A stretch of 64,000 nt of DNA from a virus (Duplodnaviria; Heunggongvirae; Uroviricota; Caudoviricetes). The stretch covers positions 166,155 through 230,154 of IMG/VR virus record IMGVR_UViG_3300044712_000568, one strand, 5' to 3'. Every line of letters starts with the position of its first letter. Positions within the stretch are counted from its first letter, which is position 1. The notes under the pieces were generated by a model. That model did no database searches, had not been told where the DNA came from, and saw nothing but the letters and a program-made list of their open reading frames with translations. The translations under genes were made by a program, and so were the position numbers. Of this stretch, positions 16,822 through 38,935 are shown in pieces.

Positions 16822-17174
16822 CGGGTTCTACTCAATTCATTCCAAAGATCAGAAAAAATGCTTCTGTTATAAAATCGTAGTAATACTACAAGAGAAATAA
16901 TAGCTAAGCAGATATAAGGGTCTGCACCTTTCATAAAATAATGTCCCGCGCAAAGTATTGCAAAAAATAATCCCAAAAGTCCAAAGTATCTTGGATAAAA
17001 CTGTCGTAATAAATAGTACTCTAATGTTTGATTGTTTGAATTTACAGCTAAAAATTTAAAAATATAATATCTAGTATTTCTAAATGTCTTCATTACTCTA
17101 ATTTGATTAATTGCCTCACATATAAAATATGTTAATACAATTACTGCACTGAAAAAATACATGTTATGCCGCAA
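16818..17174 (-). CDS. hypothetical membrane protein
   Basis: 118-aa ORF with hydrophobic segments. Confidence 0.4.
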   Translation of the reverse strand: MRHNMYFFSAVIVLTYFICEAINQIRVMKTFRNTRYYIFKFLAVNSNNQTLEYYLLRQFYPRYFGLLGLFFAILCAGHYFMKGADPYICLAIISLVVLLRFYNRSIFSDLWNELSRTR

Positions 17175-17544
17175 ATGATACTGTCGTTGTTACTAATTCA
17201 CCCGTTGCTCGTGTTCTTAAAATCAATTCGAAAATTCTAGTATTTTCTAAGCTAGCTGCTTTGATTGAAGCTACTTCAACTCTTGGTTCCCATCTTTCAA
17301 TATCGGCTTTTATTAAGTCGGCTATTAATCCTTGAGTAATTTCATTGATTGGTTCGAATAATAAATCGTGGGCAGAACTTCCAAATTCGTAGTTCATTGG
17401 CATCGACCCTTTTTTAGTATTCAGTATAACATAGATATTATTTTTTAACAGTTCATCATCGACTGCAATATGAAAAAAACCAGTTCCAGCACCTCGTCTT
17501 GGAGGAAACGCTATACCGACATAAGTTGGGTTGCCATTAGTCAT
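17164..17544 (-). CDS. baseplate wedge protein, gp25/GpW family
   Basis: GIAFPPRRGAGTG...NNIYVILNTKKGSMPMNYEFGS...DLLFEP...ERWEPRVEV matches the GpW/gp25 family signature. Confidence 0.75.
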   Translation of the reverse strand: MTNGNPTYVGIAFPPRRGAGTGFFHIAVDDELLKNNIYVILNTKKGSMPMNYEFGSSAHDLLFEPINEITQGLIADLIKADIERWEPRVEVASIKAASLENTRIFELILRTRATGELVTTTVSFAA

Positions 17545-17955: not shown

Positions 17956-18366
17956 TTGCCGATACTCCTCTCGGAGTACCTCATGTACGCTATCCTGCAT
18001 TTACCTACTGGTAAATTTTTAGTCAGAGCCAATAGAATAGACTGCCAAGACCTTACAACTTACGACATAGACTATATTGGTAAAACCTTATTTTATAATA
18101 AGAAAGATGCTGAAAACTATAAACGTAAATTTTTAATTTTCTATTATCTAATAATTAAACATCATGCTGAAGCTATTGGAAGTGCAATAGTCTTTCCAAA
18201 AAGAATTCCAAAATTTTTAAGGAAGAAAAATAGATTTAAATCTTTTGGTTTTTCTTACGCTTCTTACGATTTAGGAGATAGATCATTGGATTTTTGGCTA
18301 TCTTCTATTAAAGATAACACTATTATTGTAACAGACCCAAAAGAATTTTTAGTTATTAAGGTATAA
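17956..18366 (+). CDS. HIPTG-family small protein (paralog)
   Basis: YAILHLPTGKFL near N-terminus, C-terminal KEFLVIKV. Confidence 0.5.
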   Translation: MPILLSEYLMYAILHLPTGKFLVRANRIDCQDLTTYDIDYIGKTLFYNKKDAENYKRKFLIFYYLIIKHHAEAIGSAIVFPKRIPKFLRKKNRFKSFGFSYASYDLGDRSLDFWLSSIKDNTIIVTDPKEFLVIKV

Positions 18367-18667
18367 ATAAAGTCTCAAGTTTTTTATGAAGCATTAGTTT
18401 AAGTTTTTTAGTTACTTTAGATTCTTCATAAAATACAATAGAAAAGTCTTCTATATTTGGATAGATATTAAATTTTGCGAAAAGAGTCTCAGCAAACACC
18501 TTTTTAGAATAAAACAAAAGATGTTCATGCAATAATTCAGCATCTGTTAGTTTAGTTTTAAATAGAGTAATTAACATATCTAACTCAGATTTTGCTTCTA
18601 CTTCATTTCCAAAAAGTAGTGGCAAAATCTCTTGCGATGGAATATGCTTAATAACATAAATTCCCAT
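18356..18667 (-). CDS. HIPTG-family variant
   Basis: N-terminal YVIKHIPSQEIL. Confidence 0.4.
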   Translation of the reverse strand: MGIYVIKHIPSQEILPLLFGNEVEAKSELDMLITLFKTKLTDAELLHEHLLFYSKKVFAETLFAKFNIYPNIEDFSIVFYEESKVTKKLKLMLHKKLETLFIP

Positions 18668-19464
18668 TAAGATTTCCTTTTTTTCTTAACTAATATAAAT
18701 CCGCTTAAAAATACAATAATACCACCCAAAGAGTTATATAATATTTGATTTCTAAGATAGTGCTCTCTAAATAAAATAGCCTTGGCTCTAATAAAACCAA
18801 TAGAGGCAACTACTTTTACTTGTTTAGAGTCTGGTTTTTTAAAGGATAAATTATCAGTATCAGAGGTTCCAAATTTAACATTTAATATTTGTTCTCCGGT
18901 TTTTACTGGCGTGACTAAAAAACTCCAAACATTTGCAGAATTTTCCGGCAGTAATGTTTGGAGAGTATTAGTTTTAGATTTAATTATAAATGCATCACTC
19001 TCTAATAAAATACCAACTGTTTTTGCAGACATATCTGTAAACATGGTTATAGTATTACTATTTGAATTTTCTGTTAAAGTCCCTCTAAATACTTTAACAG
19101 TAACTGAATAGTCTTTACCTATATTCATTATTTTATCATAAATAGCTAATACGCCTATTTGAGCGTATTTAACTTGAGTAAATGAATCTATTACTTCTTT
19201 TTTTGGTATAGTTATTGTTATACTTTTCGGAGAAACTGCAGTAAATTCTACATTTTCCATTCGTGCCGCAACAGGCCTAAAATCGATATCTGACATAGCT
19301 TTGTGCATTATAGCAGAAGCTGGTTTAATAGTATCCGGTAAATCTGGAGATATCATTTCTATGACAGGCAAAGCTATCTTAGTCGTTGCTTCCGGAAGTA
19401 CTTTTGGCTTATTGCAAGCTAACGTGAACAATCCCAATATAATTATAGCGTAGAGTTTTCTCAT
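18667..19464 (-). CDS. putative lipoprotein
   Basis: N-terminal signal-peptide-like MRKLYAIIILGLFTLACN, C-terminal TM. Confidence 0.5.
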   Translation of the reverse strand: MRKLYAIIILGLFTLACNKPKVLPEATTKIALPVIEMISPDLPDTIKPASAIMHKAMSDIDFRPVAARMENVEFTAVSPKSITITIPKKEVIDSFTQVKYAQIGVLAIYDKIMNIGKDYSVTVKVFRGTLTENSNSNTITMFTDMSAKTVGILLESDAFIIKSKTNTLQTLLPENSANVWSFLVTPVKTGEQILNVKFGTSDTDNLSFKKPDSKQVKVVASIGFIRAKAILFREHYLRNQILYNSLGGIIVFLSGFILVKKKRKS

Positions 19465-19525
19465 ACCGACCTACGTAATTAATTCCGAATTTCTAATCTT
19501 CGACAAAGACGGGTCGATACTAGCT

Positions 19526-19939
19526 ATGTGGAGTATACTCATGTGGGCAATAACTCATGTGACATCTGGAACGGTAGTCACAAATTATAAAGGATCTTTG
19601 TTCTATTCTGAGCGAGAGGCTAGACTGTTTTTACGTAAGACAAAACGTCTGTTAAATGTTCTTAGAACAATTTATTTATTTGATGATTACTGTGAGATGA
19701 AAGCAACTAGATATCAAGGACCTTTGTTTTTTCTTGGAGCAAAACCTGGAAAAAACAATTATCTTAAATTCAGATTTTATCGGAATCAAGAGAAACACGA
19801 TGCTTGTGAAGAATCTACTAGAAAACTTTTAATGCATTTTGGTAATAACTTAAAATTAATCCCTAATGACAAAATAACAGCTTTTTATAACCAAATAAAG
19901 CAAGCTCATTTATACTTTATCATTCATAGAGTCAATTAA
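19526..19939 (+). CDS. hypothetical protein
   Basis: 137-aa ORF, first of long + strand array. Confidence 0.4.
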   Translation: MWSILMWAITHVTSGTVVTNYKGSLFYSEREARLFLRKTKRLLNVLRTIYLFDDYCEMKATRYQGPLFFLGAKPGKNNYLKFRFYRNQEKHDACEESTRKLLMHFGNNLKLIPNDKITAFYNQIKQAHLYFIIHRVN

Positions 19940-19943
19940 ATAT

Positions 19944-20762
19944 ATGGCACAACTGAAACAGTTAGACTTTGTAAAGACTTCTGCATTAACTGAAATGGCT
20001 TATACTGTAGTAAATACAGTATGGCCTGATGTAGAAACTTATTTAGACTCATATGGCTCTTTGGATAACTGGATGGTTGAACATGATGTTGATTTATTAG
20101 AAATTAAAGATACAATTCTACAGAAATTTTTATTTAACTATTTTAAACAGTTTTTAGCTAAACATTCATTTCATTTACATTTTCTAGCACTTAATTTCTA
20201 TTATTCTGATTTAGAGTATTGGGGAGATGCTGATACTACCTTTATAGCTCACACTAAAAATGAGCAAATTGTTCCTTTGGTTCAAATTAAAATTAATGTG
20301 TATCGTATGAACGATATGAGTTTCTCTGAGTTTAAGCAAACTCTATTTCATGAATTAACCCACATTGAACAGCAATGTAAAGCATTAATCACATACGATC
20401 CAGCAGCTTTGTCTAATGCAATTAAGCCCAATACTCCATTTTCAGTAAATGATTTAATGGATAATTTTTCCAACAAAAGAGATTATAAGGATAGTGTATC
20501 TCCTTTGGAAAATTTACAGGAAATTGGAGCTTATGCTAATGATTTTGCTCTAAAACTATTTGGACAATATAAACAGTTATTAAAATCTCGTTCTCCAAAA
20601 GAGCGGGATATTTTTTTACGCACCGAAATAATTCCAAAGTATTCTTCTTATATGTCAGACGAAATGAGAGCTCATTTTGATTTACTACCATATAATAAGA
20701 GAAATAGTTTTTTAAAGCAAATGGTTAGACAGCTAAAGGAATTAACCTCTGGACTAATCTAA
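19944..20762 (+). CDS. HExxH-motif protein (putative zinc metallopeptidase-like)
   Basis: LFHELTHIEQ motif. Confidence 0.45.
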   Translation: MAQLKQLDFVKTSALTEMAYTVVNTVWPDVETYLDSYGSLDNWMVEHDVDLLEIKDTILQKFLFNYFKQFLAKHSFHLHFLALNFYYSDLEYWGDADTTFIAHTKNEQIVPLVQIKINVYRMNDMSFSEFKQTLFHELTHIEQQCKALITYDPAALSNAIKPNTPFSVNDLMDNFSNKRDYKDSVSPLENLQEIGAYANDFALKLFGQYKQLLKSRSPKERDIFLRTEIIPKYSSYMSDEMRAHFDLLPYNKRNSFLKQMVRQLKELTSGLI

Positions 20763-21034
20763 TGGAAATATATCAGATTCTACATATACCTACTGGAGAA
20801 TACCTGACCTCAGTAAATAGGAATGGAAAACCAGTATTGTGTGCAGATGAGGAATGTGCCAAGAAAATTATATACAGTGTTGTAATGCACACTGCGTATA
20901 TTGGAGGTGCTCCGATAAGTGATTATTTCGTTAAGTCTTTAGATAAACAAGAGTTCTGTCTAGAAGAATTTGACGCAGTAAGCACTACGGCCCCTACTTT
21001 TCAATATCCAAAACCGCGCATACTTTCTCTGTAA
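20762..21034 (+). CDS. HIPTG-family small protein
   Basis: MEIYQILHIPTGEYL; C-term QEFCLEEFD. Confidence 0.5.
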   Translation: MEIYQILHIPTGEYLTSVNRNGKPVLCADEECAKKIIYSVVMHTAYIGGAPISDYFVKSLDKQEFCLEEFDAVSTTAPTFQYPKPRILSL

Positions 21035-21076
21035 TACTCAATGAGAGATAGCCGATAAATAGGTATCGGAGTCTCT

Positions 21077-21331
21077 ATGTCGTTTGATGGAATGACCTTG
21101 CTGTATATACCAGAAGGCCATAGATATAAACTTACGTTATTTGCAAATATAACATCTGTTACAGATTATATGCAATATTTGGATTTTAAAATTCTTCGAG
21201 AAAATCTTTATTTCTCTATTCAAGAATTTGAACACCATGATGAAATATTTTATATTGCTCCAAATTTCTTTAGTCCAGAAGAATTAACCAAAATGTTTGT
21301 TTCAATTCTTCCGGAAGAAGTAGATATTTAA
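21077..21331 (+). CDS. hypothetical protein
   Basis: 84-aa ORF. Confidence 0.4.
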   Translation: MSFDGMTLLYIPEGHRYKLTLFANITSVTDYMQYLDFKILRENLYFSIQEFEHHDEIFYIAPNFFSPEELTKMFVSILPEEVDI

Positions 21332-21588
21332 TGAAATATAAAATTTACGATTTTACTAAAGACGTTTATTTTCCAAGAACTAAAAACATATTTATTCCAT
21401 ATACTGATGCCGTATTAGAATGTATTGATGCATTAGATGATAACGATCAAGTAACAAGATTATCAGTATATATTTATAGCTATGAAAATGGTGCAGAAGA
21501 ACACTCCCCAAAAGAAATTATGTCTTTTGAGGAGTTTTTAGGTTATGCAGCAAAAGCAAAAAATGATTGGTTAAATTGGAGTAACTAA
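21331..21588 (+). CDS. hypothetical protein
   Basis: 85-aa ORF, ATGA-type coupling to previous. Confidence 0.4.
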   Translation: MKYKIYDFTKDVYFPRTKNIFIPYTDAVLECIDALDDNDQVTRLSVYIYSYENGAEEHSPKEIMSFEEFLGYAAKAKNDWLNWSN

Positions 21589-21804
21589 GATTTTACTTGC
21601 ATCTGCTTTTCTGATAGCAATATTAGAAGACTGTCCCTTTATTTGAATTAGAATGGGATCTCCTAATGGAGCTACTGCTTTGATTTTAATTTTTGTTCCT
21701 TTTAGAAATCCCATTTCCAATAATCTATTTCTAGTGGGAGAATCTAAATCGATAAGTCTAATAATGCCTCTGGAATTAATGGGAAGTGTTGAAAGTGTTA
21801 CCAT
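21571..21804 (-). CDS. FeoA-like SH3-fold protein
   Basis: RLLEMGFLKGTKIKIKAVAPLGDPILIQIKGQSSNIAIRKADASKILV matches FeoA pattern. Confidence 0.5.
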   Translation of the reverse strand: MVTLSTLPINSRGIIRLIDLDSPTRNRLLEMGFLKGTKIKIKAVAPLGDPILIQIKGQSSNIAIRKADASKILVTPI

Positions 21805-21955
21805 ACATTTAATTTAGATAATTTATGAAGTATATCAAAATATGGGTAATAACTAAATCTCAAATTTTAGCTTTAGCTAAATTAAGACTGTTAGCAATTC
21901 GTAGGCGGCAATAGATTTTCATTAACCTTGTCTGTCATTTGACGATAATTGAAGC

Positions 21956-22222
21956 ATGAGGGCTATACTGCATATACCAAGCGGTGAATTGGTGGAATTC
22001 GTGAGAATGAACGCACGAGGAGTCTCCATACATAATGGTTTATATATAGTATTTAGACTACATAAAAATTTATATAGTCCAGTATTTCCGGGCGGAATGC
22101 AGGGACCGATTCCTTTTAGAATCTTTCTAAAAGAAGATGAACATGTAGAATTACTAATGCATTCTCTAATGCAATGTAAGGAAAAGTTCTTAGCAGAAGA
22201 ATTTACGATTATAGATTTATGA
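21956..22222 (+). CDS. HIPTG-family small protein
   Basis: MRAILHIPSGELV; C-term LAEEFTIIDL. Confidence 0.5.
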   Translation: MRAILHIPSGELVEFVRMNARGVSIHNGLYIVFRLHKNLYSPVFPGGMQGPIPFRIFLKEDEHVELLMHSLMQCKEKFLAEEFTIIDL

Positions 22223-22367
22223 TGGTATACGCTTTATTAGATTTATTAGATGGTGAATGGCTTGATGTATATGATACCAAGGGAGAGGCTTTAGTATCTC
22301 TTATTTTGTTCTGTTATGAAAATGATCGAGAACTTTGTGAATTTGATATTGTTTATAGGAAAAAGCA

Positions 22368-22622
22368 ATGTATAACGTAGTTTACACCAAAACTGGGGAA
22401 GTAATTAAAGCGGAATTTGTATTAACTATGACTAAAGGCTATACAACTTATTGTATAGGACAAGGAAATCCTGCTAGATTTTATACTAAGTTAGGTGCTT
22501 GGTGGGCTCTCAGAAAAGCGTTGAAAAATAAAAATTGGAGAGTATTGGAACGAGGCCATAAAAATATGGCTCCGTATAGAAAACAACTATTTAAAATTAT
22601 GGAAGCTCCCTCGCTCAATTAA
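22368..22622 (+). CDS. hypothetical (degenerate HIPTG-like N-terminus)
   Basis: VVYTKTGEVI. Confidence 0.4.
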   Translation: MYNVVYTKTGEVIKAEFVLTMTKGYTTYCIGQGNPARFYTKLGAWWALRKALKNKNWRVLERGHKNMAPYRKQLFKIMEAPSLN

Positions 22623-22637
22623 GTATAGAGGTGAGCA

Positions 22638-22802
22638 ATGCAATTGGCTAGTAAGAAAACGTTAGAAGAATTGGTGCTAGATTTTTCAAGTGTTTGGGAT
22701 GCTTATTGGAATTCAAAAGTTGGAAACGGGCCTAGTAAAAAGGACTTAGATAAGGCTTTTGATAAGGTAGTAAAAGAAGCAAAGAAATTAAGTAAGTCAT
22801 AA
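22638..22802 (+). CDS. small ORF (54 aa), not in track
   Basis: ATG 6 nt after gaggtga. Confidence 0.35.
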   Translation: MQLASKKTLEELVLDFSSVWDAYWNSKVGNGPSKKDLDKAFDKVVKEAKKLSKS

Positions 22803-23138
22803 TTCACTGAACGTATCTTATTCGCATACCGTCACTTAGCGGTATGCGATTTCTTTGTAATATCTTACAGCGAGTGGCCGATAATACTCGGGTAGGAGGC
22901 ATAGTGTTCAAATTTCATTTTAGCAATGGCGGCTGTACTTTTCATAGTAATAGCTTACGAATAAAGACAAAAGTATATTCTAGAATATATATTCAATTTG
23001 CTCCAAGTTTAGTATATGAAGCAGAAAATAATTATGCTAATATTTTACTGCTTGAGAGATTTGTTAGAACGCTGCAACAAAATAAAAATATTAGTGCTTT
23101 TAAGGTGAATGTGCATTTAGATAGATGCACAACACCCT

Positions 23139-23441
23139 ATGTTATGTTGGATTCATATGACGTTAACCTATAGAATTTTGCATATGCCATCTGGAGAATG
23201 GATGGTATCGAAACCAAGGTTTAGATCTAAAATTCTTGAATTTAGATATAAATGGTATGCTGAAAGATATTTAAAAAAGATGTTATCTCAGGATTCTACT
23301 ACCTATATTAAAGCTGGAGATAGAGAATATTTTACAGAGTTTTCAAAAGAAGAATTTTGTATTGTTGCTGTGAATGATAATATAACTTTCAATTCTCCTA
23401 AAAATGTTCCAGCACCTCCTAGAGCTAGGATGGTTAAATAA
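23139..23441 (+). CDS. HIPTG-family small protein
   Basis: YRILHMPSGEWMV; C-term KEEFCIVAV. Confidence 0.5.
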   Translation: MLCWIHMTLTYRILHMPSGEWMVSKPRFRSKILEFRYKWYAERYLKKMLSQDSTTYIKAGDREYFTEFSKEEFCIVAVNDNITFNSPKNVPAPPRARMVK

Positions 23442-23791
23442 TGAGATTATTGTATGGCAATGCACGAAATCCGGTTGTTATTATAACTGAGATCTATTAT
23501 AACATACTCAAACAACCTCAAGTTGGATTTTTAAGTATGGTGCCAATGGCAATAGATGTTCAAAAAATAAATCATTATCATATTTTACCCATAGCAGTTA
23601 ACCATTTTGGGCGAGATCCGATGGAAAGCATAAAACGAAACAAAAATAGTAAGGGTAGATTTATTTATGAATTCACTGAGTCTGAAGTTATGGATGCTTT
23701 AACCTTCTTCAAAGACATGGATTTACGACAATTTATTTTAGTAAAAGACAACGGCGAAATGATAAACTATATGGGTAGACAAATCAATTAA
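23441..23791 (+). CDS. hypothetical protein
   Basis: 116-aa ORF. Confidence 0.4.
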   Translation: MRLLYGNARNPVVIITEIYYNILKQPQVGFLSMVPMAIDVQKINHYHILPIAVNHFGRDPMESIKRNKNSKGRFIYEFTESEVMDALTFFKDMDLRQFILVKDNGEMINYMGRQIN

Positions 23792-23807
23792 GTATAGCGA
23801 GGTATTT

Positions 23808-24023
23808 ATGTATGTAGCTACACCATTATCAAAACATATTGCCGGATACGATTACGATACTAGTTCTCAGACTTTGACTATTACTTTTAATCCAAAAGGA
23901 CATAAATATCAATACTATCATGTCCCAGAAAAAATAGTAAAGGGATTATCAGATTCTTCATCTAAATCAGCCTTTTTTGTAAAGTACATTAAAAACCAAT
24001 ATAAAACAATCCGGATTCAGTAA
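23808..24023 (+). CDS. hypothetical protein
   Basis: 71-aa ORF. Confidence 0.4.
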   Translation: MYVATPLSKHIAGYDYDTSSQTLTITFNPKGHKYQYYHVPEKIVKGLSDSSSKSAFFVKYIKNQYKTIRIQ

Positions 24024-24292
24024 TGAGTAACCAACAATCTGCAACACCAAGACAAGATTATTTAAGAGTAACTAGAGATTTTGCAACTGCTTTACAAACA
24101 CATATTAGAGAATTTGAAGATCATCCTGATCTATTTGATCGAGATCTTTTACAGGCAGCATATAGAACTCAAGCGTCCATGGTTCAGCAACATTTTGCAG
24201 TGCTGTCGATTTTGTATGATCGTGAATTTCCAAATATTCCAGAAGTTGTTGAAGAGCCTGCAGCTCCAGCGAGTTCTCTTATTTTACCATAG
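24023..24292 (+). CDS. hypothetical protein
   Basis: 89-aa ORF (alternative overlapping frame 24081..24308 judged less likely). Confidence 0.35.
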   Translation: MSNQQSATPRQDYLRVTRDFATALQTHIREFEDHPDLFDRDLLQAAYRTQASMVQQHFAVLSILYDREFPNIPEVVEEPAAPASSLILP

Positions 24293-24300
24293 GCATATTA

Positions 24301-24495
24301 ATGTATAAAGAAACGCCATTTGAGAAAATCTATCATGTGGATATTCATCTCAGTGCTACCAGTAAATCATTATTAGAAGCTGGTATAGCAACAAAAAATT
24401 TGCCAATGCTTTTACCATTTCTACAAGCTATTTTAGATGATTGTAATAAACAAGACGATGCTTTACTCAATCCAGGTTTCAAACATAAAAAATAA
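24301..24495 (+). CDS. hypothetical protein
   Basis: 64-aa ORF. Confidence 0.35.
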   Translation: MYKETPFEKIYHVDIHLSATSKSLLEAGIATKNLPMLLPFLQAILDDCNKQDDALLNPGFKHKK

Positions 24496-24733
24496 AAACA
24501 GAATTGAATGGCTGAGCGGATTAGCTGTTAATAATATATTAAGTATCTATCGATTCTACAATAAAATATCCGAAGTAAACTCACATGAAATATTAGAATC
24601 ATATAAAGAATTAGAGGCTGCTTTAGATCATTTACCAGCATTTACTTTAAGAATACCAAAAGATTCGGCCGAATTTATTGTAGATCGATTGACTAAACTT
24701 TCACATCCTTGGAATAGATTTACCATTGTATGA
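24458..24733 (+). CDS. hypothetical protein
   Basis: ORF 24437..24733, internal ATG chosen. Confidence 0.3.
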   Translation: MLYSIQVSNIKNKNRIEWLSGLAVNNILSIYRFYNKISEVNSHEILESYKELEAALDHLPAFTLRIPKDSAEFIVDRLTKLSHPWNRFTIV

Positions 24734-24996
24734 TAAAAAAGAAAAATAGTAATTGGAAAAAGGGAGAGCAATATATTGATATTAAATATTGCCAATTTAA
24801 TCTACTAACTAGTGATACTCAATATGAATATTACTTACAGCATAATCTACAGTCAAGAAAAATCACGGTAGATATAGTAGACAAAAATAATAACACAACA
24901 GTAATTCCAAGTTATCGTATATTAAATGACAATGCTATTGTAGTTTATCTACCATCGGTATGTTTTAGAAACTATGTAGTAATGATTAGGGCTTAA
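24730..24996 (+). CDS. hypothetical protein
   Basis: 88-aa ORF. Confidence 0.4.
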   Translation: MIKKKNSNWKKGEQYIDIKYCQFNLLTSDTQYEYYLQHNLQSRKITVDIVDKNNNTTVIPSYRILNDNAIVVYLPSVCFRNYVVMIRA

Positions 24997-24997
24997 T

Positions 24998-25381
24998 ATG
25001 TTATTGATAGAAACTTATTTAGGATTATCCAAAATTCCAAATGCTGGTTTAGGTTTGTTTACTTCAAACTTTATTCCAGAAGGAACGGTAATTTGGAGAG
25101 AACATAATATTTTTGATCTGACTTTTACTTCAGAAGAGGTAAACCGATTGGGCGATACTTTTTGGCCGGCTAAAGAAAAGATGGAATCTTATGCTTGGTT
25201 TGATAGTATTCGTGGAGTATGGGTTCTTCCTGGAGATGATACACGCTTCTTAAATCACTCAGAAAATCCTAATTGTGATGATTCTGAGCTATATGTTACT
25301 ACTGCAGCTAGAGATATTATGGCTGGTGAAGAATTGACAGTAGATTATAGAACATTTCATACGGGTCCGCTTGGATTTTAA
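24998..25381 (+). CDS. minimal SET-domain protein (putative lysine methyltransferase)
   Basis: NAGLGLFT...GTVI near N-term, RFLNHSENPNCDD (NHSxxPN motif), ELTVDY near C-term. Confidence 0.65.
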   Translation: MLLIETYLGLSKIPNAGLGLFTSNFIPEGTVIWREHNIFDLTFTSEEVNRLGDTFWPAKEKMESYAWFDSIRGVWVLPGDDTRFLNHSENPNCDDSELYVTTAARDIMAGEELTVDYRTFHTGPLGF

Positions 25382-25971
25382 TACGATATCTTAAAAGTAC
25401 TTGCGTATTTATTCCAAGCTCTCGGATCAGTTTTTATTAGATCTTCTATTTGTTTATTATATCGTTTATGTTTGAAACCATTCGCATATAACATAGCAGC
25501 ATATGGATGTGCTTCAATATTAGGTTCTGCTAATACGAAGTCAAATTGATATCTAACTGCATATCTAGCAGCACCTTCAGGATCTTTTGCAATTAAATAT
25601 TCCAAATCTGGAATTCTGTGCCCAGCGTTCATTGCATAAAAGAATGCATCTTGTGGAGTATCTACCCCAGCTGGTAATTGCACTTCACGTTCTTTGTTTT
25701 TATTGCTTGGTTGAGTTGGGCTATTTACCGCATGAGAATTGTCTCTGCGCATTTGATAGATAGGATGGTCATATTGAAAGAAAAACAAATCACCAGATCT
25801 AGTATTGCGGCCTCTTAATAATCTCCATTCCCAACCCTGTCTTCCAGTATCTTGTTTGACTGCTTCATAATAAGAACCGTTATATAAAACTCTGGTTCCT
25901 TTAGATATAGGAAGTTCAGTTTCATTAACTCCCTCATCAATTTTTATAAATTCGACAGACAATAGTTTCAT
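25378..25971 (-). CDS. hypothetical protein
   Basis: 197-aa ORF, lone minus-strand gene inside plus-strand array. Confidence 0.45.
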   Translation of the reverse strand: MKLLSVEFIKIDEGVNETELPISKGTRVLYNGSYYEAVKQDTGRQGWEWRLLRGRNTRSGDLFFFQYDHPIYQMRRDNSHAVNSPTQPSNKNKEREVQLPAGVDTPQDAFFYAMNAGHRIPDLEYLIAKDPEGAARYAVRYQFDFVLAEPNIEAHPYAAMLYANGFKHKRYNKQIEDLIKTDPRAWNKYASTFKISY

Positions 25972-26005
25972 ATTAAATATCTCATACTTAATTACCGAGC
26001 ATTGA

Positions 26006-26257
26006 ATGAGTTACCAACTCGGCCGCGTATCAAAAAATTTCATGTATATTTCGTCATCTGGCAGTATCTTGTGTCCCATCAGAGACTTAAAAGATTCTTC
26101 CGGAGGTCATGCTTTGATCGTAGTTGACGATAATTGCTATGTACTGTACATTAAGAGTTCGACAGGGGTTTTTAGATCTGTCACTCATTGGTTTCCAGAA
26201 GTTATCCAAGTAATGCACACATTACCACTTATCCCAAGATCGGCTATTGTTTTATGA
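26006..26257 (+). CDS. hypothetical protein
   Basis: 83-aa ORF. Confidence 0.35.
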   Translation: MSYQLGRVSKNFMYISSSGSILCPIRDLKDSSGGHALIVVDDNCYVLYIKSSTGVFRSVTHWFPEVIQVMHTLPLIPRSAIVL

Positions 26258-26565
26258 TATACTACATTTCTATTTGGGAAAAGAATAACAAGAATACGGC
26301 ATACCATTCAATATCTAATGTAATAACTTCTAGATATGTTGCAAATCATAGACGGAAATTTAAGAAATTTTTAGAGCGCAATTTAAAAGTTTGCCCAATT
26401 AAAAATTCAAACGATGTGTTAGATTTACTTGGGGGTAAATTTCTTGGTCCCATTCTAACAAATAGAGCTATATTTACTGACAAGGAAATGGCTTCTTTAT
26501 TTGTAGAATTTGTATCATTACTTAACGATAAGAAATTGTTTAAGTTAGAAGAAGTGGATATTTAA
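26254..26565 (+). CDS. hypothetical protein
   Basis: internal ATG of 26188..26565 ORF, ATGA overlap with previous stop. Confidence 0.35.
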   Translation: MIYYISIWEKNNKNTAYHSISNVITSRYVANHRRKFKKFLERNLKVCPIKNSNDVLDLLGGKFLGPILTNRAIFTDKEMASLFVEFVSLLNDKKLFKLEEVDI

Positions 26566-26939
26566 TGTACGCTGTTAGATTATTAGAAAATAATAATAAA
26601 AATTCTATTACCTATTTTCCATTAAAAATATTCTTTGCTATGACAGATTTATTAGATGCTTATGTTAAAGTAAATAGATTAGATACTTCTTTATTTGTTG
26701 GAAGCTCAATGCACAGGAATATACACTGGAAACGAAGTGGCTTTCAAGAAACTGAGATTGTATTATTTGCAGAAAAATTAGGAGCTATGCACTTCGCTAA
26801 ATTTATTCAAGAGCAAAATAATTATGTATTAGCTGTAATGAATATGACAGACTGTGTATTAGTTCCAGAAGAAGTTGCACCTGAACTAATGGATAGAGAA
26901 TATGAACGATTTATAAATGGCTTAGAGGAAACTGTTTAG
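26565..26939 (+). CDS. hypothetical protein
   Basis: 124-aa ORF. Confidence 0.4.
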   Translation: MYAVRLLENNNKNSITYFPLKIFFAMTDLLDAYVKVNRLDTSLFVGSSMHRNIHWKRSGFQETEIVLFAEKLGAMHFAKFIQEQNNYVLAVMNMTDCVLVPEEVAPELMDREYERFINGLEETV

Positions 26940-26941
26940 TT

Positions 26942-27355
26942 ATGACTTTTAATTTTGACAATCATAAAAATGTAAAGCATGCTCCTTTGCCCATTACTCT
27001 AGTTCAGGCTGAACTTATCTTTTGGCTTTTAGCTAGAGAAGTTATTTTTCTTAGTACTTTTGATAATGATGTTCAAGATTGGTCCAATCATTGGTATGCT
27101 GTAGTAAATTTAAATGACACATTTTATTATGCTACTGCAGATGCTGAAAGCGTTACTTTGAATGGCTTAGCAGACCTTAAATATTATTTTGATAAGTATT
27201 CTTGGGACGGTATTACAGCCTGGGCTTCTTTTAAACGGGAAGGAATGGAACCAGTTGCTCGTCTAAGAACTAAAGAATATTACGCAGCTATGGAAGAAAT
27301 TAAAGACAACTATGCTAAAGCTGAATTAGTGCGCATAGAAAATATGGAGATTTAA
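26942..27355 (+). CDS. hypothetical protein
   Basis: 137-aa ORF. Confidence 0.4.
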   Translation: MTFNFDNHKNVKHAPLPITLVQAELIFWLLAREVIFLSTFDNDVQDWSNHWYAVVNLNDTFYYATADAESVTLNGLADLKYYFDKYSWDGITAWASFKREGMEPVARLRTKEYYAAMEEIKDNYAKAELVRIENMEI

Positions 27356-27781
27356 ATGGGAAATACTTTAGAACAAGACATGCCAGGATGGGTAAGCAAT
27401 TTACAAGAGCATCATCATAAGAATAGATTCGAGATGATTCCTAATGGAGATACTGGAGTCACTGATATTGATGCATTACGTTTAAACTGTCATAGTATTA
27501 TTAGAGACTCTAAAACTGGATTTTTAGTTTTATCTTTTTATGATGACGTTGAAAATAAAGTTTACAAGGCTTTAGATAATTGGACTAATTGTAAGAATAT
27601 ATCGTTTGATATTATTGGATTTAATGGTAACCATGAAGTAGCCAGAAAAATCCATGTTACCGCCAAGTCAGAATTAACCAATTGGTCTACTTATATAGAT
27701 TTTAGCTGGGCTGATTCTAGTAGGGCTCCCTCTATTGACTTGACTATTAGAGTTTACGATAGACTTCACACTAGATACTAA
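27356..27781 (+). CDS. hypothetical protein
   Basis: 141-aa ORF. Confidence 0.4.
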   Translation: MGNTLEQDMPGWVSNLQEHHHKNRFEMIPNGDTGVTDIDALRLNCHSIIRDSKTGFLVLSFYDDVENKVYKALDNWTNCKNISFDIIGFNGNHEVARKIHVTAKSELTNWSTYIDFSWADSSRAPSIDLTIRVYDRLHTRY

Positions 27782-28050
27782 TGGTATATAGAATTTACCA
27801 TATTCCAACTGGCGTATTTTTACGTAATGCAGATATGTATTCTGCAGAAGCCTTGATTGAGTTTACGGAAAAAGCATATGCTGAACGTCTTATAGATCAG
27901 ATTATTACGATAAATAATGATTTTGCTAATGCGACATATGTAAAAGAAGAGTTTGATATTATTCCCATAAAAGAAGAGAGTTGGCCAGTTACTTATGTAC
28001 ATTTTGACGAACTTTCTATGGATGCTAGATTAAAATTAGGAATAGGATAA
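27781..28050 (+). CDS. HIPTG-family small protein
   Basis: MVYRIYHIPTGVFL; C-term VKEEFDIIPI. Confidence 0.5.
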   Translation: MVYRIYHIPTGVFLRNADMYSAEALIEFTEKAYAERLIDQIITINNDFANATYVKEEFDIIPIKEESWPVTYVHFDELSMDARLKLGIG

Positions 28051-28053
28051 AAT

Positions 28054-28266
28054 ATGAGTGATAACACTAAGGGATTATATAAAAAGTTTATTGTTACTAG
28101 GACCGATGGTGCCAGTGGTCCAGGAATGAAGCACGAGGATTGCAGTTATTTTGTCCTTGATTTAGACCATGACCCATATGCAAAGGCTGCATTAACCATG
28201 TATGCTCTTGCCTGTGCTGAAACTCATCCACAATTATCTAAAGAATTATTAGAACTGGTGAGATAA
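28054..28266 (+). CDS. hypothetical protein
   Basis: 70-aa ORF. Confidence 0.4.
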   Translation: MSDNTKGLYKKFIVTRTDGASGPGMKHEDCSYFVLDLDHDPYAKAALTMYALACAETHPQLSKELLELVR

Positions 28267-28267
28267 C

Positions 28268-28516
28268 ATGGGATTAGGTCCACCAATTTGTCCCGTATGT
28301 CACATAGAATGTTCCTTTACCAAAGAGTTAAAGGAAGGTATGGTTATTGATTTACATAATAAAAATGAGAAAAGAAGAGAATTTTCCCATTATGTTTGTG
28401 ATACTTGTGGGGTAGTTGGTGGGTACGATCATTTATATTCTCGTCCGTCCGCTAGGACCGCGACATCTTCTCCAAAATTCGTAAAAATTCCCAAAATAAT
28501 CTCAACACTCTGTTGA
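28268..28516 (+). CDS. small zinc-ribbon protein
   Basis: CPVCH...C...CDTCG. Confidence 0.4.
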   Translation: MGLGPPICPVCHIECSFTKELKEGMVIDLHNKNEKRREFSHYVCDTCGVVGGYDHLYSRPSARTATSSPKFVKIPKIISTLC

Positions 28517-28517
28517 A

Positions 28518-28548
28518 ATTAAAACGGGACCCGAAAGTCCCGAATTTA
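28518..28548. terminator. bidirectional terminator-like hairpin cgggac-ccgaaa-gtcccg flanked by A/T runs
   Basis: between convergent genes 28268..28516(+) and 28571..28870(-). Confidence 0.5.
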
Positions 28549-28570
28549 ACAAATCTGAGTAGATTTTATA

Positions 28571-28870
28571 TTAATAAACAATCTTATAAACGATTGTAGA
28601 TGTATCAGTTGCTGAAGATGATGTAAATGTATAAGAAGTTCCATTTACAATTGCGTAAGAAAGATGGCCAAGAGTTCCACCTGCGGTAGATCTTTCATAA
28701 AGAATTACGGATGTTGTTTTAATATTAGCATCCAAAATAGCGCCACTGCTTCCTGTTGTTAAAGTCACTGTCTTAAACTGACCTAACTGAGCATCAACTA
28801 AAGAAGTGAATTTAGTCATGTCTTCGCAATATACATCTGGAATTGCAATTCCAAGATTCGGTAATTTCAT
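28571..28870 (-). CDS. hypothetical protein
   Basis: 99-aa ORF, T/S-rich. Confidence 0.4.
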   Translation of the reverse strand: MKLPNLGIAIPDVYCEDMTKFTSLVDAQLGQFKTVTLTTGSSGAILDANIKTTSVILYERSTAGGTLGHLSYAIVNGTSYTFTSSSATDTSTIVYKIVY

Positions 28871-28901
28871 TAATAGACTCCTTAGACTATATACTTAATT
28901 C

Positions 28902-29006
28902 CTAATAGCGCTCGTGCTTCTTTACTTTCTTACCCTTAGGACTAGTCTTCTTAATCTTAGTGTGCTTTACTTTCTTTGGTTTAGTCTTTGTAGTTCCTAC
29001 AGCCAT
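28902..29006 (-). CDS. 34-aa highly basic peptide (MAVGTTKTKPKKVKHTKIKKTSPKGKKVKKHERY), not in track
   Basis: translated by hand; directly upstream of 28571..28870 on same strand. Confidence 0.3.
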   Translation of the reverse strand: MAVGTTKTKPKKVKHTKIKKTSPKGKKVKKHERY

Positions 29007-29032
29007 TTAGAAACCCTCCTTTATTTAAATCT

Positions 29033-29401
29033 ATGTTTTATTTAATCCAACATATTCCAACTGGTTCTTATTATCATAAGATAGGAGTTTATAACTTATT
29101 TCAAGATATTCCTAAAGATGTTAATAGTAACGCGGAGTATTCGAAGTTTTTAAGTGATGCTAATTTTTACGAACTAAACAAACGAGAGCAACTACTTAAA
29201 GATTTACGAGAAGCTACTTATGTTAGTGATCATATATACAGTTCTCCTAGAAAGATTAATTTTAAATATGATGCTAGGAAAATAATTTCCGCTGTAGTAA
29301 AACGTAAATATATGACAATAGATAATGGCGAAATATTTAAAATTTATTCTAGTAAAGAGTTTATGATATTAGGAGTAGAACAAAATGAACGAGCACAATA
29401 A
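29033..29401 (+). CDS. HIPTG-family small protein
   Basis: MFYLIQHIPTGSYY; C-term SSKEFMILGV. Confidence 0.5.
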   Translation: MFYLIQHIPTGSYYHKIGVYNLFQDIPKDVNSNAEYSKFLSDANFYELNKREQLLKDLREATYVSDHIYSSPRKINFKYDARKIISAVVKRKYMTIDNGEIFKIYSSKEFMILGVEQNERAQ

Positions 29402-29642
29402 AAATGCTCCCGATTATGTAGCTAAGGCTAAAACTATACTAGCTATTCTAGAAGAAAATTTAAAAGTAGAAAAACTATCTGAAACTGAAATAGCTTCATT
29501 ATTTAAAAAACTTAACCCAATTCGATTAAAACTACCGGCAACTGAACTTCAAATCAAATATAGAATTAGTGATATGAATGTGACATATATAACTAGAGCA
29601 TATACTGACGCTGGAATAGCTATAGGAAATTATGATGAGTAA
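29385..29642 (+). CDS. hypothetical protein
   Basis: 85-aa ORF. Confidence 0.4.
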   Translation: MNEHNKNAPDYVAKAKTILAILEENLKVEKLSETEIASLFKKLNPIRLKLPATELQIKYRISDMNVTYITRAYTDAGIAIGNYDE

Positions 29643-29880
29643 TATAGGATATAAGAGATGTTGGCAATGTGGCGCTGAAAACGCTGACGATAGAGATTTC
29701 TGCGGTATCTGTAAAGAACCCTTAGATATCAATTTAATTTCTTCAATGCTAACAAAAGAAGAAAAGATTAAATTAAAGAAATTACTTTCAATTATTGAAA
29801 TAGATCAATTTAATAATATTAAAATAAACGGAATACTCCAACCCATAGATATTATATTTTTTCCCAATGATAAATCCTGA
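29632..29880 (+). CDS. small zinc-ribbon protein
   Basis: CWQCG...CGIC. Confidence 0.4.
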   Translation: MMSNIGYKRCWQCGAENADDRDFCGICKEPLDINLISSMLTKEEKIKLKKLLSIIEIDQFNNIKINGILQPIDIIFFPNDKS

Positions 29881-30145
29881 AATCAAACCCTGTGATAATT
29901 CCGCCTACACTGAGGCTATAGCTTTTGAATCCATGGAACCAAAAGATGGTACCTACGATTTTGAAAATAATGTGTATAATGGAATAACCCATAAAGATGT
30001 AGAGCGTTTTGCTAGAATAGTCGCATACAAAGTAGCAAAAAATATTAAAAATGGATATACTATGGATCCTTACGCTGATCCTCTAGTTTATGTGGATTGC
30101 GAAGATTATCCCTGCCTTGGAGGATTTACTGATGAGACATGTTAG
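29867..30145 (+). CDS. hypothetical protein
   Basis: 92-aa ORF. Confidence 0.4.
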   Translation: MINPEIKPCDNSAYTEAIAFESMEPKDGTYDFENNVYNGITHKDVERFARIVAYKVAKNIKNGYTMDPYADPLVYVDCEDYPCLGGFTDETC

Positions 30146-30524
30146 ACAACGCTATGACTCTGACTGTGGGATTGCTGGTGCCGCCTGTATTGCTGGAACT
30201 GGCTATTGGAAAATGCACAATAAAGCTATAGAGGTTATTTGGAAAAACAAACGACCCTCTAGCTATGTAACCTGCTCTGAAGATATAAAAAAACTATTAA
30301 AGAAATTTAAAGTTAAAGTGTCTGATGCAGTTAGAGTTAAAAAGTGGTCTAGAATTCCTGATAAAGCTTTAGTGCGAATTCTATATGCGAATGGTTGTGG
30401 GCATCTTGTAATTTTTACTAGAGATGAAAAAGGCCGTATGCAATGCTATGATCCCTATCTAGATAAAGTTCGTAGAGATCTTCATAAGATGCGACCACCT
30501 ACTCATTACATGGAGATTTTATAA
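30132..30524 (+). CDS. C39-like papain-fold cysteine peptidase domain protein
   Basis: QRYDSDCGIAGAACIAG (Q..DCG.A.L signature) and GHLVIFTRDEKGRMQCYDP (catalytic His ... DP). Confidence 0.5.
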   Translation: MRHVRQRYDSDCGIAGAACIAGTGYWKMHNKAIEVIWKNKRPSSYVTCSEDIKKLLKKFKVKVSDAVRVKKWSRIPDKALVRILYANGCGHLVIFTRDEKGRMQCYDPYLDKVRRDLHKMRPPTHYMEIL

Positions 30525-30871
30525 TGGCCTGCCAATGTGACGATTGCAAAATGAAAGGGTATTTACATATACCCACTGGAATCATCTTTTATAACCTGAA
30601 TATGAATGCCATATTATCGCATGGCACCTTCAAAAAAGTATTTCCTGATTGGTATGAATCAGCTTTTGAGCGATTGGACGATAATATATTGAGCAAGGAT
30701 CCCGCATTCCTTAAAGCTGACTTTGATTGGAAGGCTGAGGGAATTCATAGAGTATCTAAGCAATGTTCAATATTAGTCAACTTACCTAGTGGATATGTTC
30801 CCGAAATTGCTATTGAGGGTTATTGTAGGGAATACATGGAAAAATGTCAAAATACTCTTTTAATGGGATAA
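30524..30871 (+). CDS. HIPTG-family small protein
   Basis: GYLHIPTGIIFYNL after a CxxC N-terminal extension. Confidence 0.45.
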   Translation: MACQCDDCKMKGYLHIPTGIIFYNLNMNAILSHGTFKKVFPDWYESAFERLDDNILSKDPAFLKADFDWKAEGIHRVSKQCSILVNLPSGYVPEIAIEGYCREYMEKCQNTLLMG

Positions 30872-32908: not shown

Positions 32909-33616
32909 ATGGAACTCTCAGCTCTCAAGACCGCAGCTCTCTCGCTGCTCACCTACAAGGTCACCACTCCTGAAAAGGAAGGTGAAAAGACCATCCTCTC
33001 GTTCTTCCTCAACGACTTCACCGAGGAAATCGGGAAGAAGGGCGCCAAGGTTGTCGTTCCGGCCGCCATCTCCAAGATCGCCGTCAACAAGGTGATCGAG
33101 AAGATCCTGGTCAAGACGGATATGGAAGATGCCGTCACCCTGGAAGAGAAGTCCAAGGCCATCGCTTCCGTCAGCGGTCCTCACCTCGTCAGCTACATGG
33201 ACAAGGCCATCTCCGGCTTCGGTTCGTATCTTTCGAGCCGTCCTGAGTTCAGCACTCCGGAAGAGCGTCAGAACGCTTCCCGTTTCATGCTGGCTTCCAT
33301 GCTCTCCGTCATCGTGGAGAACGAGAAGACCGCTTCCGTGGCCGATCCTTTCCTGGACTGCAAGCGGCGCTTCGCTTCTTCCGACACCTACGAGAAGCTG
33401 GTGGCCTCCAGCAATCCCTCCGTCCTCGTGATCCGCAACATCCAGGATCAGATCGACGAACTGGAGAAGCTGAAGGAGAAGGCCGAGGAAGTGTCCAACG
33501 AGGACTACATCGCCTTCCTGAACGCCAAGAAGGAAGCCAACGGTCTGCAGGAGGACAAGGATTCGGCCAAGTTCGGCTATGTCCTGCTCCGCGGCAAGAA
33601 GGACGAGAGCAAGTAG
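32909..33616 (+). CDS. hypothetical protein with strongly GC3-biased codon usage
   Basis: strong SD gaaaggagattcctaATG preceded by hairpin gcctac-ctttgt-gtaggc and T-run; 235 aa, Lys/Glu-rich. Confidence 0.6.
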   Translation: MELSALKTAALSLLTYKVTTPEKEGEKTILSFFLNDFTEEIGKKGAKVVVPAAISKIAVNKVIEKILVKTDMEDAVTLEEKSKAIASVSGPHLVSYMDKAISGFGSYLSSRPEFSTPEERQNASRFMLASMLSVIVENEKTASVADPFLDCKRRFASSDTYEKLVASSNPSVLVIRNIQDQIDELEKLKEKAEEVSNEDYIAFLNAKKEANGLQEDKDSAKFGYVLLRGKKDESK

Positions 33617-33643
33617 TCTCTCGTTCTCTCTAGGATATGGGAT

Positions 33644-33670
33644 AGGGTATCTTGATGTTTGAGATACCCT
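33644..33670 (+). terminator. hairpin agggtatct-tgatgtttg-agataccct immediately after stop codon
   Basis: 9-bp perfect stem; no clean T-run. Confidence 0.4.
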
Positions 33671-33848
33671 TCCCATTCCTTTTGTTATACCCATGATGTA
33701 GTCTTAGTGATGGGTATAGTAAAGGGAATTGATAGTGTTGTCCCGGAATTAGGAATAATTGAGAAATAAACTGAGGTAAAGTGCATTAGTTTGTATATCC
33801 CTCTGTTAGTAGTATAAACGATTCTCGCCCATCTTTTAGGAGATCCGA

Positions 33849-35190: not shown

Positions 35191-35266
35191 AAGTAGTAAA
35201 TCAGGCGTAATTCCTTCTGAGCGTGTTTAATACTACCGCTCTCCCACTAGCTGAAGGAGTAATAAA

Positions 35267-37166: not shown

Positions 37167-37847
37167 ACAGTGATAAAATCCTCAACGGCTGGCGGATACG
37201 ATCCGTCTATCGTGTCTACATTGAGGTAGCTGGATATAATTGACTAACTCCAGCATTGTTTTACCTTCCGAGATGCGGACTCCGAGCTGGCGTTGTTCCA
37301 GCCCATCTTTTAGCTGACAAACATCTTCTAATCCTGGCAGATTAGGAGAACAATTCAGCACCTTGCCAGAGGTTAGCGGAATATAGATAGTATCGTGAGT
37401 CCCAGGTGGCAGAGAAATCTATAAGTTCGCCGGAAGTATATTTTCCACACGATGGCCACTATTATCCCGGCGAAGGCTCTGCGAAAGCATCCAACAGGCT
37501 GCCATCAGTCAGCGTATCGTGTGTTTTATAAAACAAATTCCTTCGTTAAGATAATGAGTCTTCTCCCTCCAAAGGAGCAAATCTTGGAAACCCGTATCCA
37601 AGGCGAAGGATAACTTAGTTGTTCTCGATGCCGGTTGTAATGGGTTCAACCCGGCTAGGTGCTAATCGGATTCCAATAAGCAACCCGTTTGAAGGAATCT
37701 GAGCTAAGGTTTGTTTTAGGAGAACCCTTTATAAAGCTCTATTGGACGAGCGTCACCCTAAAAAGGTGAAGGTGTGTGGTTCAAATCCCACTATAATAGG
37801 GTTGTCTCAAGACAAATTTGTTTAATAGTTTTGTTTTAGGAGGAGTG

Positions 37848-37988
37848 CATGAATCAAGTTCCTTGGTATCACTTCTGGGATATGGGAAGCGGAGTAGGCG
37901 GCGGAATGATCGTCGGTATTCTTGTTTCTATTCCCTTCATCTATCTCTTTCTCAAGATCAGGAGTAGTCGTGCCCCGAGGGATTGAAA
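37848..37988 (+). CDS. small membrane protein (46 aa), not in track
   Basis: ttaggaggagtgcATG; hydrophobic core GMIVGILVSIPFIYLFL. Confidence 0.45.
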
Positions 37989-38812
37989 AGACTCCAAAGA
38001 TTCTTACCAAACTCACGGCTGTGTCCATGAGTTGCAATGGAAGGAAAATCAATACCTTCATTCATCTTCCCATCATTGGTGGAAAGGCTGTGCTTCCCAA
38101 TGATATTGTTACTGAGATGGAAAAAGATCTTGGTGCGGGAAGAGGAGATACGGTGAGTCTTGGCTAAAATTTCAGATTAGCCAATAACAAAGCGGTCCCG
38201 CCTATTCTATCATTCCACTACGGGTAAACAAATCCCGAGTAAAGATCGCCAATGATCGTGGATGATAATTACCTACTATCCAGAGACGCGTAAGCGCCAC
38301 TAAGATAGCAAGGGTTTGGATTAAGCTCCAGACAAATCCTAATGTTGAGATACATTAGGTTGTAGTCAAAGAAATGATCTCGCTGAGACTCTCGATAGGG
38401 TTCGTGGCTTAAACCTGGGACGAGTTGGATCTAGCTTTCTTTGGCGGAACCCGTAGACAGATAAGTAAACATCGGGCAGGCCCTGGATATGTTGCAGGGC
38501 ATTGAGATAATTGTAGCGAAATGAGATAGTCATTCTACTCCAGCAACAACATGGTATGTCCCATAGTTGTTCTGTTAAACATCTGAGTCATACTCAGGCT
38601 ACAATCTCACTCGTTTTGAAGGTGTCGTAAACCTATCTCCAGGGTTAGACTTCCTTGGGTTATCAGTTAAAAAGTGAAGTAGTCTAAAGAATACTAGACT
38701 TCCATTAGTGATAGAGAAACAACTATCACTTCCATGCGCTCTAGTCACAATGTCTTTAGATTCCTTGGGTAAAATGTAACCCTCTACCTTTTCTTCTTTC
38801 TCTACGGAGAGC

Positions 38813-38935
38813 CCATGACCACCGTCATCAAGACCACCAGGAAGAAGGCCAAGCGCCTCGCAAACGGGACGCAGAAGCGTCCGAACCGTGGCAAGGGACA
38901 GTCTCCCAAGTCCGGTAGTTCCAAGCATCAGTAGA
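38813..38935 (+). CDS. small basic protein (40 aa), not in track
   Basis: ggagagcccATG; MTTVIKTTRKKAKRLANG... Confidence 0.35.

Follow-up and report, generated by a model that had tools for sequence, protein, structure and literature searches.

Why should one part of a large phage genome encode, again and again, short proteins that begin with nearly the same H-I-P-T-G stretch? We asked this of a 64,000-nt stretch of DNA (positions 166,155 to 230,154 of the IMG/VR virus record IMGVR_UViG_3300044712_000568; we call the whole stretch the window), which is part of a 230,154-bp JGI metagenome contig with the appearance of a large T4-like myovirus. An initial annotation, made from the letters alone, had described about ten small proteins here with an N-terminal HIPTG motif and a C-terminal KEEFxII motif, and had suggested that they are a rapidly diversifying set of host-takeover or anti-defence effectors. 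Our analysis shows that they are nine to eleven copies of one small protein domain, nine of them solid, one marginal (at 22368) and one doubtful (at 22219), and that they form a genuine paralogous family. As a kind of finding this is an ordinary one, a lineage-specific expansion of a small orphan protein family in a large phage.

The pattern H[ILMV]P[TS]G occurs 7 times in the six-frame translation of the window, always on the + strand between 17998 and 30566, and always 6-26 residues past the preceding in-frame stop. In 50 shuffled versions of the window it turned up 0.08 times on average and never more than once. The N-terminal block as a whole has the consensus [YW]-x-I-[LT]-H-[ILV]-P-[TS]-G; seven open reading frames (ORFs) in the window carry the exact H[ILMV]P[TS]G and two more carry near-variants, HIPSQ in 18356-18667(-) and HVTSG in 19541-19939, the latter being HVPTG or HIPTG in its orthologs. 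All eight ORFs named in the initial annotation do have the motif where it was placed. The block is partly matched at 22368 (YTKTG) and is not matched at 22219 (DLLDG). Between copies the motif codons vary synonymously (ATA/ATT/ATG/TTA, CCT/CCA/CCC, ACT/AGC/TCT/TCG, GGA/GGT/GGC), and DNA repeats among the copies are limited to the motif, at 70-80% identity. We conclude from these two observations that the motif is conserved at the protein level and that the copies do not stem from recent duplication. The codon variation also led us to reject a repeat or promoter at the DNA level as the cause of the motif.

The second shared motif, also claimed in the initial annotation, proved to be strongly enriched: [ED]Fx[IVL][IVL] is found in 7 of the 11 candidates and, among the 366 other stop-to-stop segments with 50 residues or more, in 8 (Fisher p about 1e-8). 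This C-terminal block is degenerate in 30524 and 22368 and takes a YFxIH version in the subfamily of the protein at 19541. Across 72 unique family sequences the motif His is kept in 67, the Pro in 65, Thr or Ser in 71 and the Gly in 64, and 64 have EF or YFxIH at the C-terminal block. Only 22 of the 72 have Glu after the motif Gly.

The likeness is not limited to five or six residues with no alignable body. Three collinear blocks align across members: the N-terminal motif, a middle FYSxKEAxxF (or a looser form of it) and the C-terminal EF block. We also ran a leave-cluster-out test, in which a member's whole cluster was removed from the family alignment, the hidden Markov model (HMM) was rebuilt and the window segments were ranked. 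Nine window members came out ahead of all non-family segments in the window, with E values of 3e-8 to 9e-3. Motif statistics, collinear blocks and leave-out HMMs together support the proposed family of small paralogs. By eye, the genes at 21077, 21331, 26188 and 26565 looked like extra degenerate members, with hairpin-like starts and EEVDI- or EEF-like ends, and we rejected them when hhalign could not separate them from 15 control families. Separately, we observed that 21077-21331 and 26188-26565, which are unrelated-looking genes, both end in EEVDI followed by TAATG and share 95% identity over 20 nt (21314-21333 and 26548-26567).

We number the copies G1 to G11 along the window and mention orthologs from the contigs syntenic with it (L001, L004-L011, L013 and L014). 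G1 (17983..18366, + strand) is a long basic form of 127 residues with an isoelectric point (pI) of 9.6, which reads MYAILHLPTGK ... LFYNKKDAENY ... KEFLVIKV and has a leave-out E of 3.1e-8; its orthologs (it is sequence P0002) are in L001, L007, L009 and L010. G2 (18356..18667, - strand, 103 residues; IYVIKHIPSQE ... LLFGNEVEAK ... EDFSIVFY) is the sole minus-strand member. It overlaps G1 at its 3' end, lies downstream of a gene for a 265-residue membrane or lipoprotein-like protein, and scored above all non-family segments at E 0.0043, with orthologs that have HIPTQ (L007), HKPTD (L009) and HTPTN (L010) as the motif. G3 (19541..19939, +; P0004) is an additional member that the initial annotation did not list, a long basic form of 132 residues and pI 9.9 with MWAITHVTSGT ... 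LFYSEREARLF ... LYFIIHRVN and a leave-out E of 4.5e-7. The ORF list starts G1 at a TTG at 17956, G3 at 19526 and G8 at 23139; the true starts are likely 17983, 19541 and 23157. The homologs of G1 and G3, distant orthologs included, are all basic (pI 9.1-10.0) and have a conserved P[KR]FLKKxNR patch.

The next members are shorter. G4 (20762..21034, +, 90 residues) is acidic (pI 5.2), reads EIYQILHIPTGEYL ... VLCADEECAKK ... LEEFDAV, has a leave-out E of 1.6e-7, and is 93% identical to its L007 ortholog with a ratio of nonsynonymous to synonymous substitution rates (dN/dS) of 0.02. Between G3 and G4, in every related phage contig, lies a gene for a 272-residue HExxH protein (HELTH; 19944-20762 here) whose stop overlaps the start of G4 at 20762, and which has a faint PhageMetallopep match (E 0.088). 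G5 (21956..22222, +, 88 residues; P0003) reads MRAILHIPSGELV ... AEEFTIIDL with a leave-out E of 8.7e-6. The two degenerate copies of the initial annotation come next, and they fared differently. G6 (22219..22380, +, 53 residues; MMVYALLDLLDGEWL ... CEFDIVYR) is a possible minimal member in which the motif His and Pro are lost. It is a conserved ORF (73% identity to the L007 ortholog, dN/dS 0.16), and its likeness to the family was seen by eye and in weak pairwise matches; the leave-out HMM gave it no statistical support (E 3.6, rank 22), so its membership is doubtful. G7 (22368..22622, +, 84 residues, pI 10.1; MYNVVYTKTGEVI ... QLFKIMEAP) survived as a marginal one: its leave-out E was 0.12 (rank 11), and with hhalign against the family alignment A6 it reached E 0.0018 over 45 columns, where the 15 control families gave 0.028 or worse. 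The L009 ortholog of G7 reads MYEVVYSPTGERL, with YSPTGE.

G8 (23157..23441, +, 94 residues) reads TYRILHMPSGEWM ... ILEFRYKWYAERYL ... KEEFCIVAV and has a leave-out E of 8.5e-7. G9 (27781..28050, +, 89 residues; modelled as P0012) is acidic (pI 4.6), reads VYRIYHIPTGVFL ... LIEFTEKAYAERLI ... KEEFDIIPI with E 6.4e-8, and has an ortholog, P0044, in L014. G10 (29033..29401, +, 122 residues; MFYLIQHIPTGSYY ... SKEFMILGV) has E 3.2e-4 and is missing in L007. G11 (30524..30871, +, 115 residues) begins MACQCDDCKM-KGYLHIPTGIIF ... and has a degenerate C-terminal block (IEGYCREY); its leave-out E of 0.0094 is above all non-family segments. The CxCxxC extension ahead of its motif (30524-30553) is kept in orthologs (P0007, P0041), and this conservation supports the upstream start at 30524. 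In charge the window copies fall at pI 4.2-5.2 (22219, 27781, 20762) and at pI 9.0-10.1 (17983, 19541, 22368, 23157, 29033).

How far does the family reach? An exhaustive HMMER search of 1.84 billion cluster representatives gave 31 matches at E<=1e-3 and 13 at E<=1e-10. The 31 are all 86-144 residues long, and all but two (P0030, P0038) have H-x-P-[TS] near the N-terminus, nearly always followed by Gly; the FYSxKEA block is present in the majority, as is an EFxIIxV or YFxIHRVN ending. From 5.8 billion proteins, word-indexed searches contributed a few further short forms (70-99 residues) and one fusion, P0047 (L012, 1346-1750), in which the domain is internal and preceded by a 70-residue Cys/His-rich region. 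Because the domain can follow that region in P0047 and a conserved CxCxxC in G11, it is an autonomous domain and not an N-terminal tag. Cys-rich elements thus precede the domain in two independent cases; the region in P0047 has no Pfam match, and a zinc site at these elements is possible.

None of the family proteins found is named or has a Pfam domain. Searches of Pfam, PHROGs, PADLOC and NCBIfam with 42 members returned scattered single near-threshold matches only, and the family profile against PDB sequences gave nothing below E 0.25. The domain thus appears, as far as sequence comparison with these libraries goes, to be previously undescribed; the initial annotation had not recognised it as a known domain, and no well-characterised family matched its HMM there. 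Against 50,697 GenBank phage records, neither megablast of the region nor tblastn of three family members (E<=1) found a match. The phage has no near relative among those records, and its baseplate hub protein has only a 28% match to a Streptococcus phage. Pattern scans confirmed no members in IMG/VR (10 pattern matches, where we estimated by hand about 20 by chance), in JGI metagenome contigs (131 matches, in a collection apparently without samples holding these phages) or in GTDB species genomes (1 match), and a full-text literature search for 'HIPTG' returned irrelevant matches only. The best explanation is that the family is restricted, within the limits of detection, to one clade of uncultured T4-like jumbo phages.

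AlphaFold2 models offer a view of what the three blocks might be doing. For G3, modelled from its own alignment, the mean predicted local distance difference test score (pLDDT) was 84.5 and the predicted TM-score (pTM) 0.78, with three strands (residues 2-6, 12-13 and 21) and a helix (24-44), followed by a low-confidence hairpin, two more helices (76-103, 112-125) and the final strand (126-130). The short form at 27781 scored pLDDT 76 and pTM 0.64, with strands at 2-7, 12-13, 25-28 and 58-63 and a helix at 31-47. The first 10 residues of the models score 91-94. In both models H-I-P-T-G covers the last part of beta1 together with a four-residue hairpin loop, the EF block is the last strand, and the length differences fall between the helix and that strand. 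The predicted core is therefore one of about 60-65 residues with the topology beta1-beta2-beta3-alpha1-beta4, in which FYSxKEA would run from beta3 into alpha1 and EEFxIIxV would be the final strand. A paralog-specific insert of roughly 10 to 80 residues is predicted between alpha1 and beta4, and in the long forms it would be a basic helical bundle. The top Foldseek matches in BFVD were A0A8S5Q9L3, A0A6J5S6S3 and A0A6J5LK40, uncharacterised phage proteins of 49-56 residues, at E 0.04-0.07. Small size and core topology are features that they have in common with the family (target TM-score 0.67-0.82, probability 0.99-1.0), but identity is only 15-16%. We consider these matches uninformative on function because they are unannotated and have no motif known to be shared.

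The suggestion that the family is rapidly diversifying did not stand up. For seven members (17983, 18356, 19541, 20762, 21956, 22368 and 23157) the close relative L007 has a positional ortholog, and for most of them so do L009 and L010, which are more distant. Family members are 47-93% identical to their L007 counterparts and neighbouring non-family genes 27-98%, and dN/dS against L007 (Nei-Gojobori) is 0.02-0.31, with dS near saturation. Because of the positional orthologs, the neighbour-like identity and the low dN/dS, we conclude that the duplications are old and that each copy is under purifying selection. Copy content does vary among related phages, as the initial annotation had thought worth checking. 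L001 and L004 are without 18356 and 22219, and 22368 is a shortened remnant in L001 and missing in L004. A four-gene block at 26942-28266 (137, 141, 89 and 70 residues, including 27781) is missing from the close relatives L007 and L004, has orthologs of 27781 and 28054 in L014, and resembles an insertion/deletion cassette. At least two of the L010 members have no counterpart in the window. Overall the sequences point to an old and mostly stable family with some lineage-specific gain and loss.

What might such a set of proteins do? We give an even chance to the reading that these paralogs of one domain are cytoplasmic, non-enzymatic binders or modulators built on a clasp-like scaffold; most of that weight is on their being non-enzymatic binders and little of it on any target. 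The N-terminal hairpin and the C-terminal strand would close one sheet, with these strands presumably paired, so that the domain would be a clasp around a variable insert. For the conserved exposed loop of the hairpin we see two possible roles: it would be a contact site common to the paralogs, or else simply a turn from which folding starts. The insert and the surface charge (pI 4.2 to 10.1) would set each paralog's own target, with acidic short forms perhaps meeting protein targets and basic long forms possibly nucleic acid, and the family would have come from old duplications and been kept as a mostly stable set beside the baseplate genes. The members, at 53-144 residues, have no match to a catalytic family and, by eye, no evident signal peptide or membrane segment. 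An enzyme is unlikely because the proteins are too small and have too few conserved polar residues, and a Ser/Thr-His-Glu catalytic triad is disfavoured because the Glu of the EEF block is Tyr in the whole G3 group. A binder is favoured because the nearest folds, AcrIC8 among them, are binders.

Several points weigh against this. The conserved His, Thr/Ser and Glu could in principle be catalytic, and P-T/S-G is a classic hairpin-turn sequence, so that the motif may be purely structural. The 'early gene' status of the array is assumed from its small, tightly packed genes. A scan for sigma-70 promoters found 60 sites where shuffles gave 76 expected, and with fewer sites than in shuffles it is silent on timing.

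Among the alternatives, it is rather unlikely, in our view, that the widely conserved, basic G1 and G3 proteins, always found beside the baseplate operon, are DNA- or RNA-binding regulators or chaperones of baseplate or tail assembly, with the short forms derived from them. The uniformly high pI and the conserved basic patch of the G1 and G3 homologs speak for it, as does the position of G1- and G3-type long forms, which adjoin the gp25-like gene even in the distant contig L013 and also in L009 and L010. The top fold match is the Tic22 repeat unit (PDB 4e6z, 8xqw_Q, 4ev1; Pfam PF04278), one of the closest known systems, and Tic22 has been described as a chaperone. Tic22 has a two-repeat architecture of about 200 residues, whereas a family member has a single core of about 65 residues, and none of the 42 members matched PF04278 at E<=0.1, scattered noise aside. 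The family has no match to any nucleic-acid-binding or chaperone family, several paralogs are acidic, and co-expression does not follow from a position beside structural genes when these lie on the opposite strand.

Nor do we think it likely that the paralogs are an anti-defence set, in which each would act, like an anti-CRISPR (Acr) protein, as a stoichiometric inhibitor of a different host immune system. Small size, varied charge, an accessory-looking region and some presence/absence variation would all fit, and the T-even internal proteins are a precedent for diverse phage anti-restriction proteins (PMC3012670). The small phage anti-CRISPR proteins AcrIC8 (PDB 8g9s_A) and AcrIC9 (8hjj_A) are also among the closest known systems. 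Against this, the family has no sequence relation to any Acr in PDB and no PADLOC signal, no helix-turn-helix (aca-like) gene was seen nearby, and most copies are stable positional orthologs under purifying selection that evolve no faster than their neighbours, unlike typical fast-turnover anti-defence loci. When the family profile was run against the complete set of PDB sequences at E<=10, 8g9s was not among the matches, and neither the HIPTG nor the EF block has anything that evidently corresponds to Y11, E22 and R58, which are conserved in AcrIC8 homologs. AcrIC8 acts by wedging into Cascade, and for this phage no CRISPR context is known. ClpS (Pfam PF02617), another candidate, was dropped, having neither a sequence match nor a strong fold match.

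More doubtful is a reading in which the HIPTG hairpin is a shared docking loop into one hub (e.g., host RNA polymerase, the ribosome, a protease or a phage-built complex) and the insert gives each paralog its own activity or target. If it were true, the family would be a phage-encoded adaptor toolkit on a new clasp-like fold.

We regard it as very improbable that HIPTG is a capsid-targeting or processing signal on unrelated cargo that is packaged and injected. In T4, the internal-protein tag always stands at the N-terminus, and the prohead protease cleaves it off at (L/I)xE. Several modules of the phage are T4-like (SbcCD, gp5- and gp25-like genes, RNA ligase), and the array resembles T4 IPI-III in having several small proteins in one large myovirus, with a conserved N-terminal stretch and divergent bodies; no window member has the motif more than 14 residues from the N-terminus. 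The T4 internal proteins have only the capsid-targeting sequence in common (PMC3012670). Here, by contrast, the motif is part of a folded domain: the later blocks are collinear and co-conserved with it, AlphaFold2 places it as a high-confidence hairpin inside the fold, and the domain can be internal, as in P0047, or stand behind CxCxxC, as in G11. There is also no conserved (L/I)xE cleavage context, with Glu following the Gly in so few sequences. Lastly, chance recurrence of a short motif with no real family behind it could appeal to the weak similarity of the bodies once the motif is removed (best pairwise BLAST E 0.003 in an 11-sequence database; two short forms as the top non-self segments of a body-only profile from the long forms, at E 0.09-0.15), but it is excluded by 7 motif matches against 0.08 expected, the second-block enrichment, leave-out E values down to 3e-8 and the same three blocks in 31 independent clusters.

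Large phages carry long arrays of uncharacterised small proteins, and this array yields a definable family, a tractable handle on this phage 'dark matter'. Its motif is diagnostic and its fold is predicted with confidence; some ten paralogs form a natural series that differs in insert and charge, and related phages carry orthologs. Mutating the same conserved loop in every paralog and exchanging inserts between them are both feasible. Should the proteins turn out to be inhibitors or adaptors, they would be a new small scaffold beside the known ones, and otherwise they are a clean new family for domain databases such as Pfam and PHROGs. Interest is modest until a function is found.

The array occupies a 14-kb stretch of small, tightly packed genes, mostly on the + strand, from just after the baseplate genes to about 32.4 kb. 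Before it lie SbcCD-like genes (2059-4889), a gp5-like hub with SLT and M23 domains (12141-14774, - strand) and the gp25-like gene (17164-17544, - strand). Within the array, apart from the family, are genes for a FeoA-domain protein (21571-21804, - strand), a KTSC-domain protein (23808-24023), a SET-domain protein (24998-25381), which stands out in a phage, a K1-lyase_C-like protein of 99 residues (28571-28870, - strand) and a C39-like peptidase (30090-30524). The closest genomic homologs of the phage FeoA (loci L015-L032, 34-47% identity) are mostly in metagenome-assembled genomes of sediment Desulfobacterales and Thermodesulfobacteriota; as a pointer to the host lineage, this similarity is a weak hint. 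A sediment metagenome is the source of one related contig. Of the terminator-like hairpins in the region, the strongest (22822-22849, 11 pairs with 6 GC, followed by TTTCTTTG on the + strand) lies between the genes 22638-22802 and 22844-23173 and may split the array into transcription units.

Near 32.4 kb the GC content rises abruptly from about 0.32 to about 0.44 and stays higher onward. The half of the window from 32000 to 64000 has few long ORFs. It has 8 tRNAs found by ARAGORN (37725-55497), an RNA ligase 1-like gene (59578-60708), a Metallophos gene (61039-61689) and an SPFH/Band 7 gene (62582-63847). At three places (32909-33694, 35201-36772 and 56038-58056) two long ORFs lie on opposite strands and overlap over nearly their whole length, the third pair being an AAA ATPase (56149-57996, + strand) against a 672-residue ORF (56038-58056, - strand). 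Rfam gives a ninth tRNA match at 49027-49140 (114 nt, 62 bits), directly after tRNA-Lys and absent from the ARAGORN list; this could be an intron-containing tRNA or one with a long insertion.

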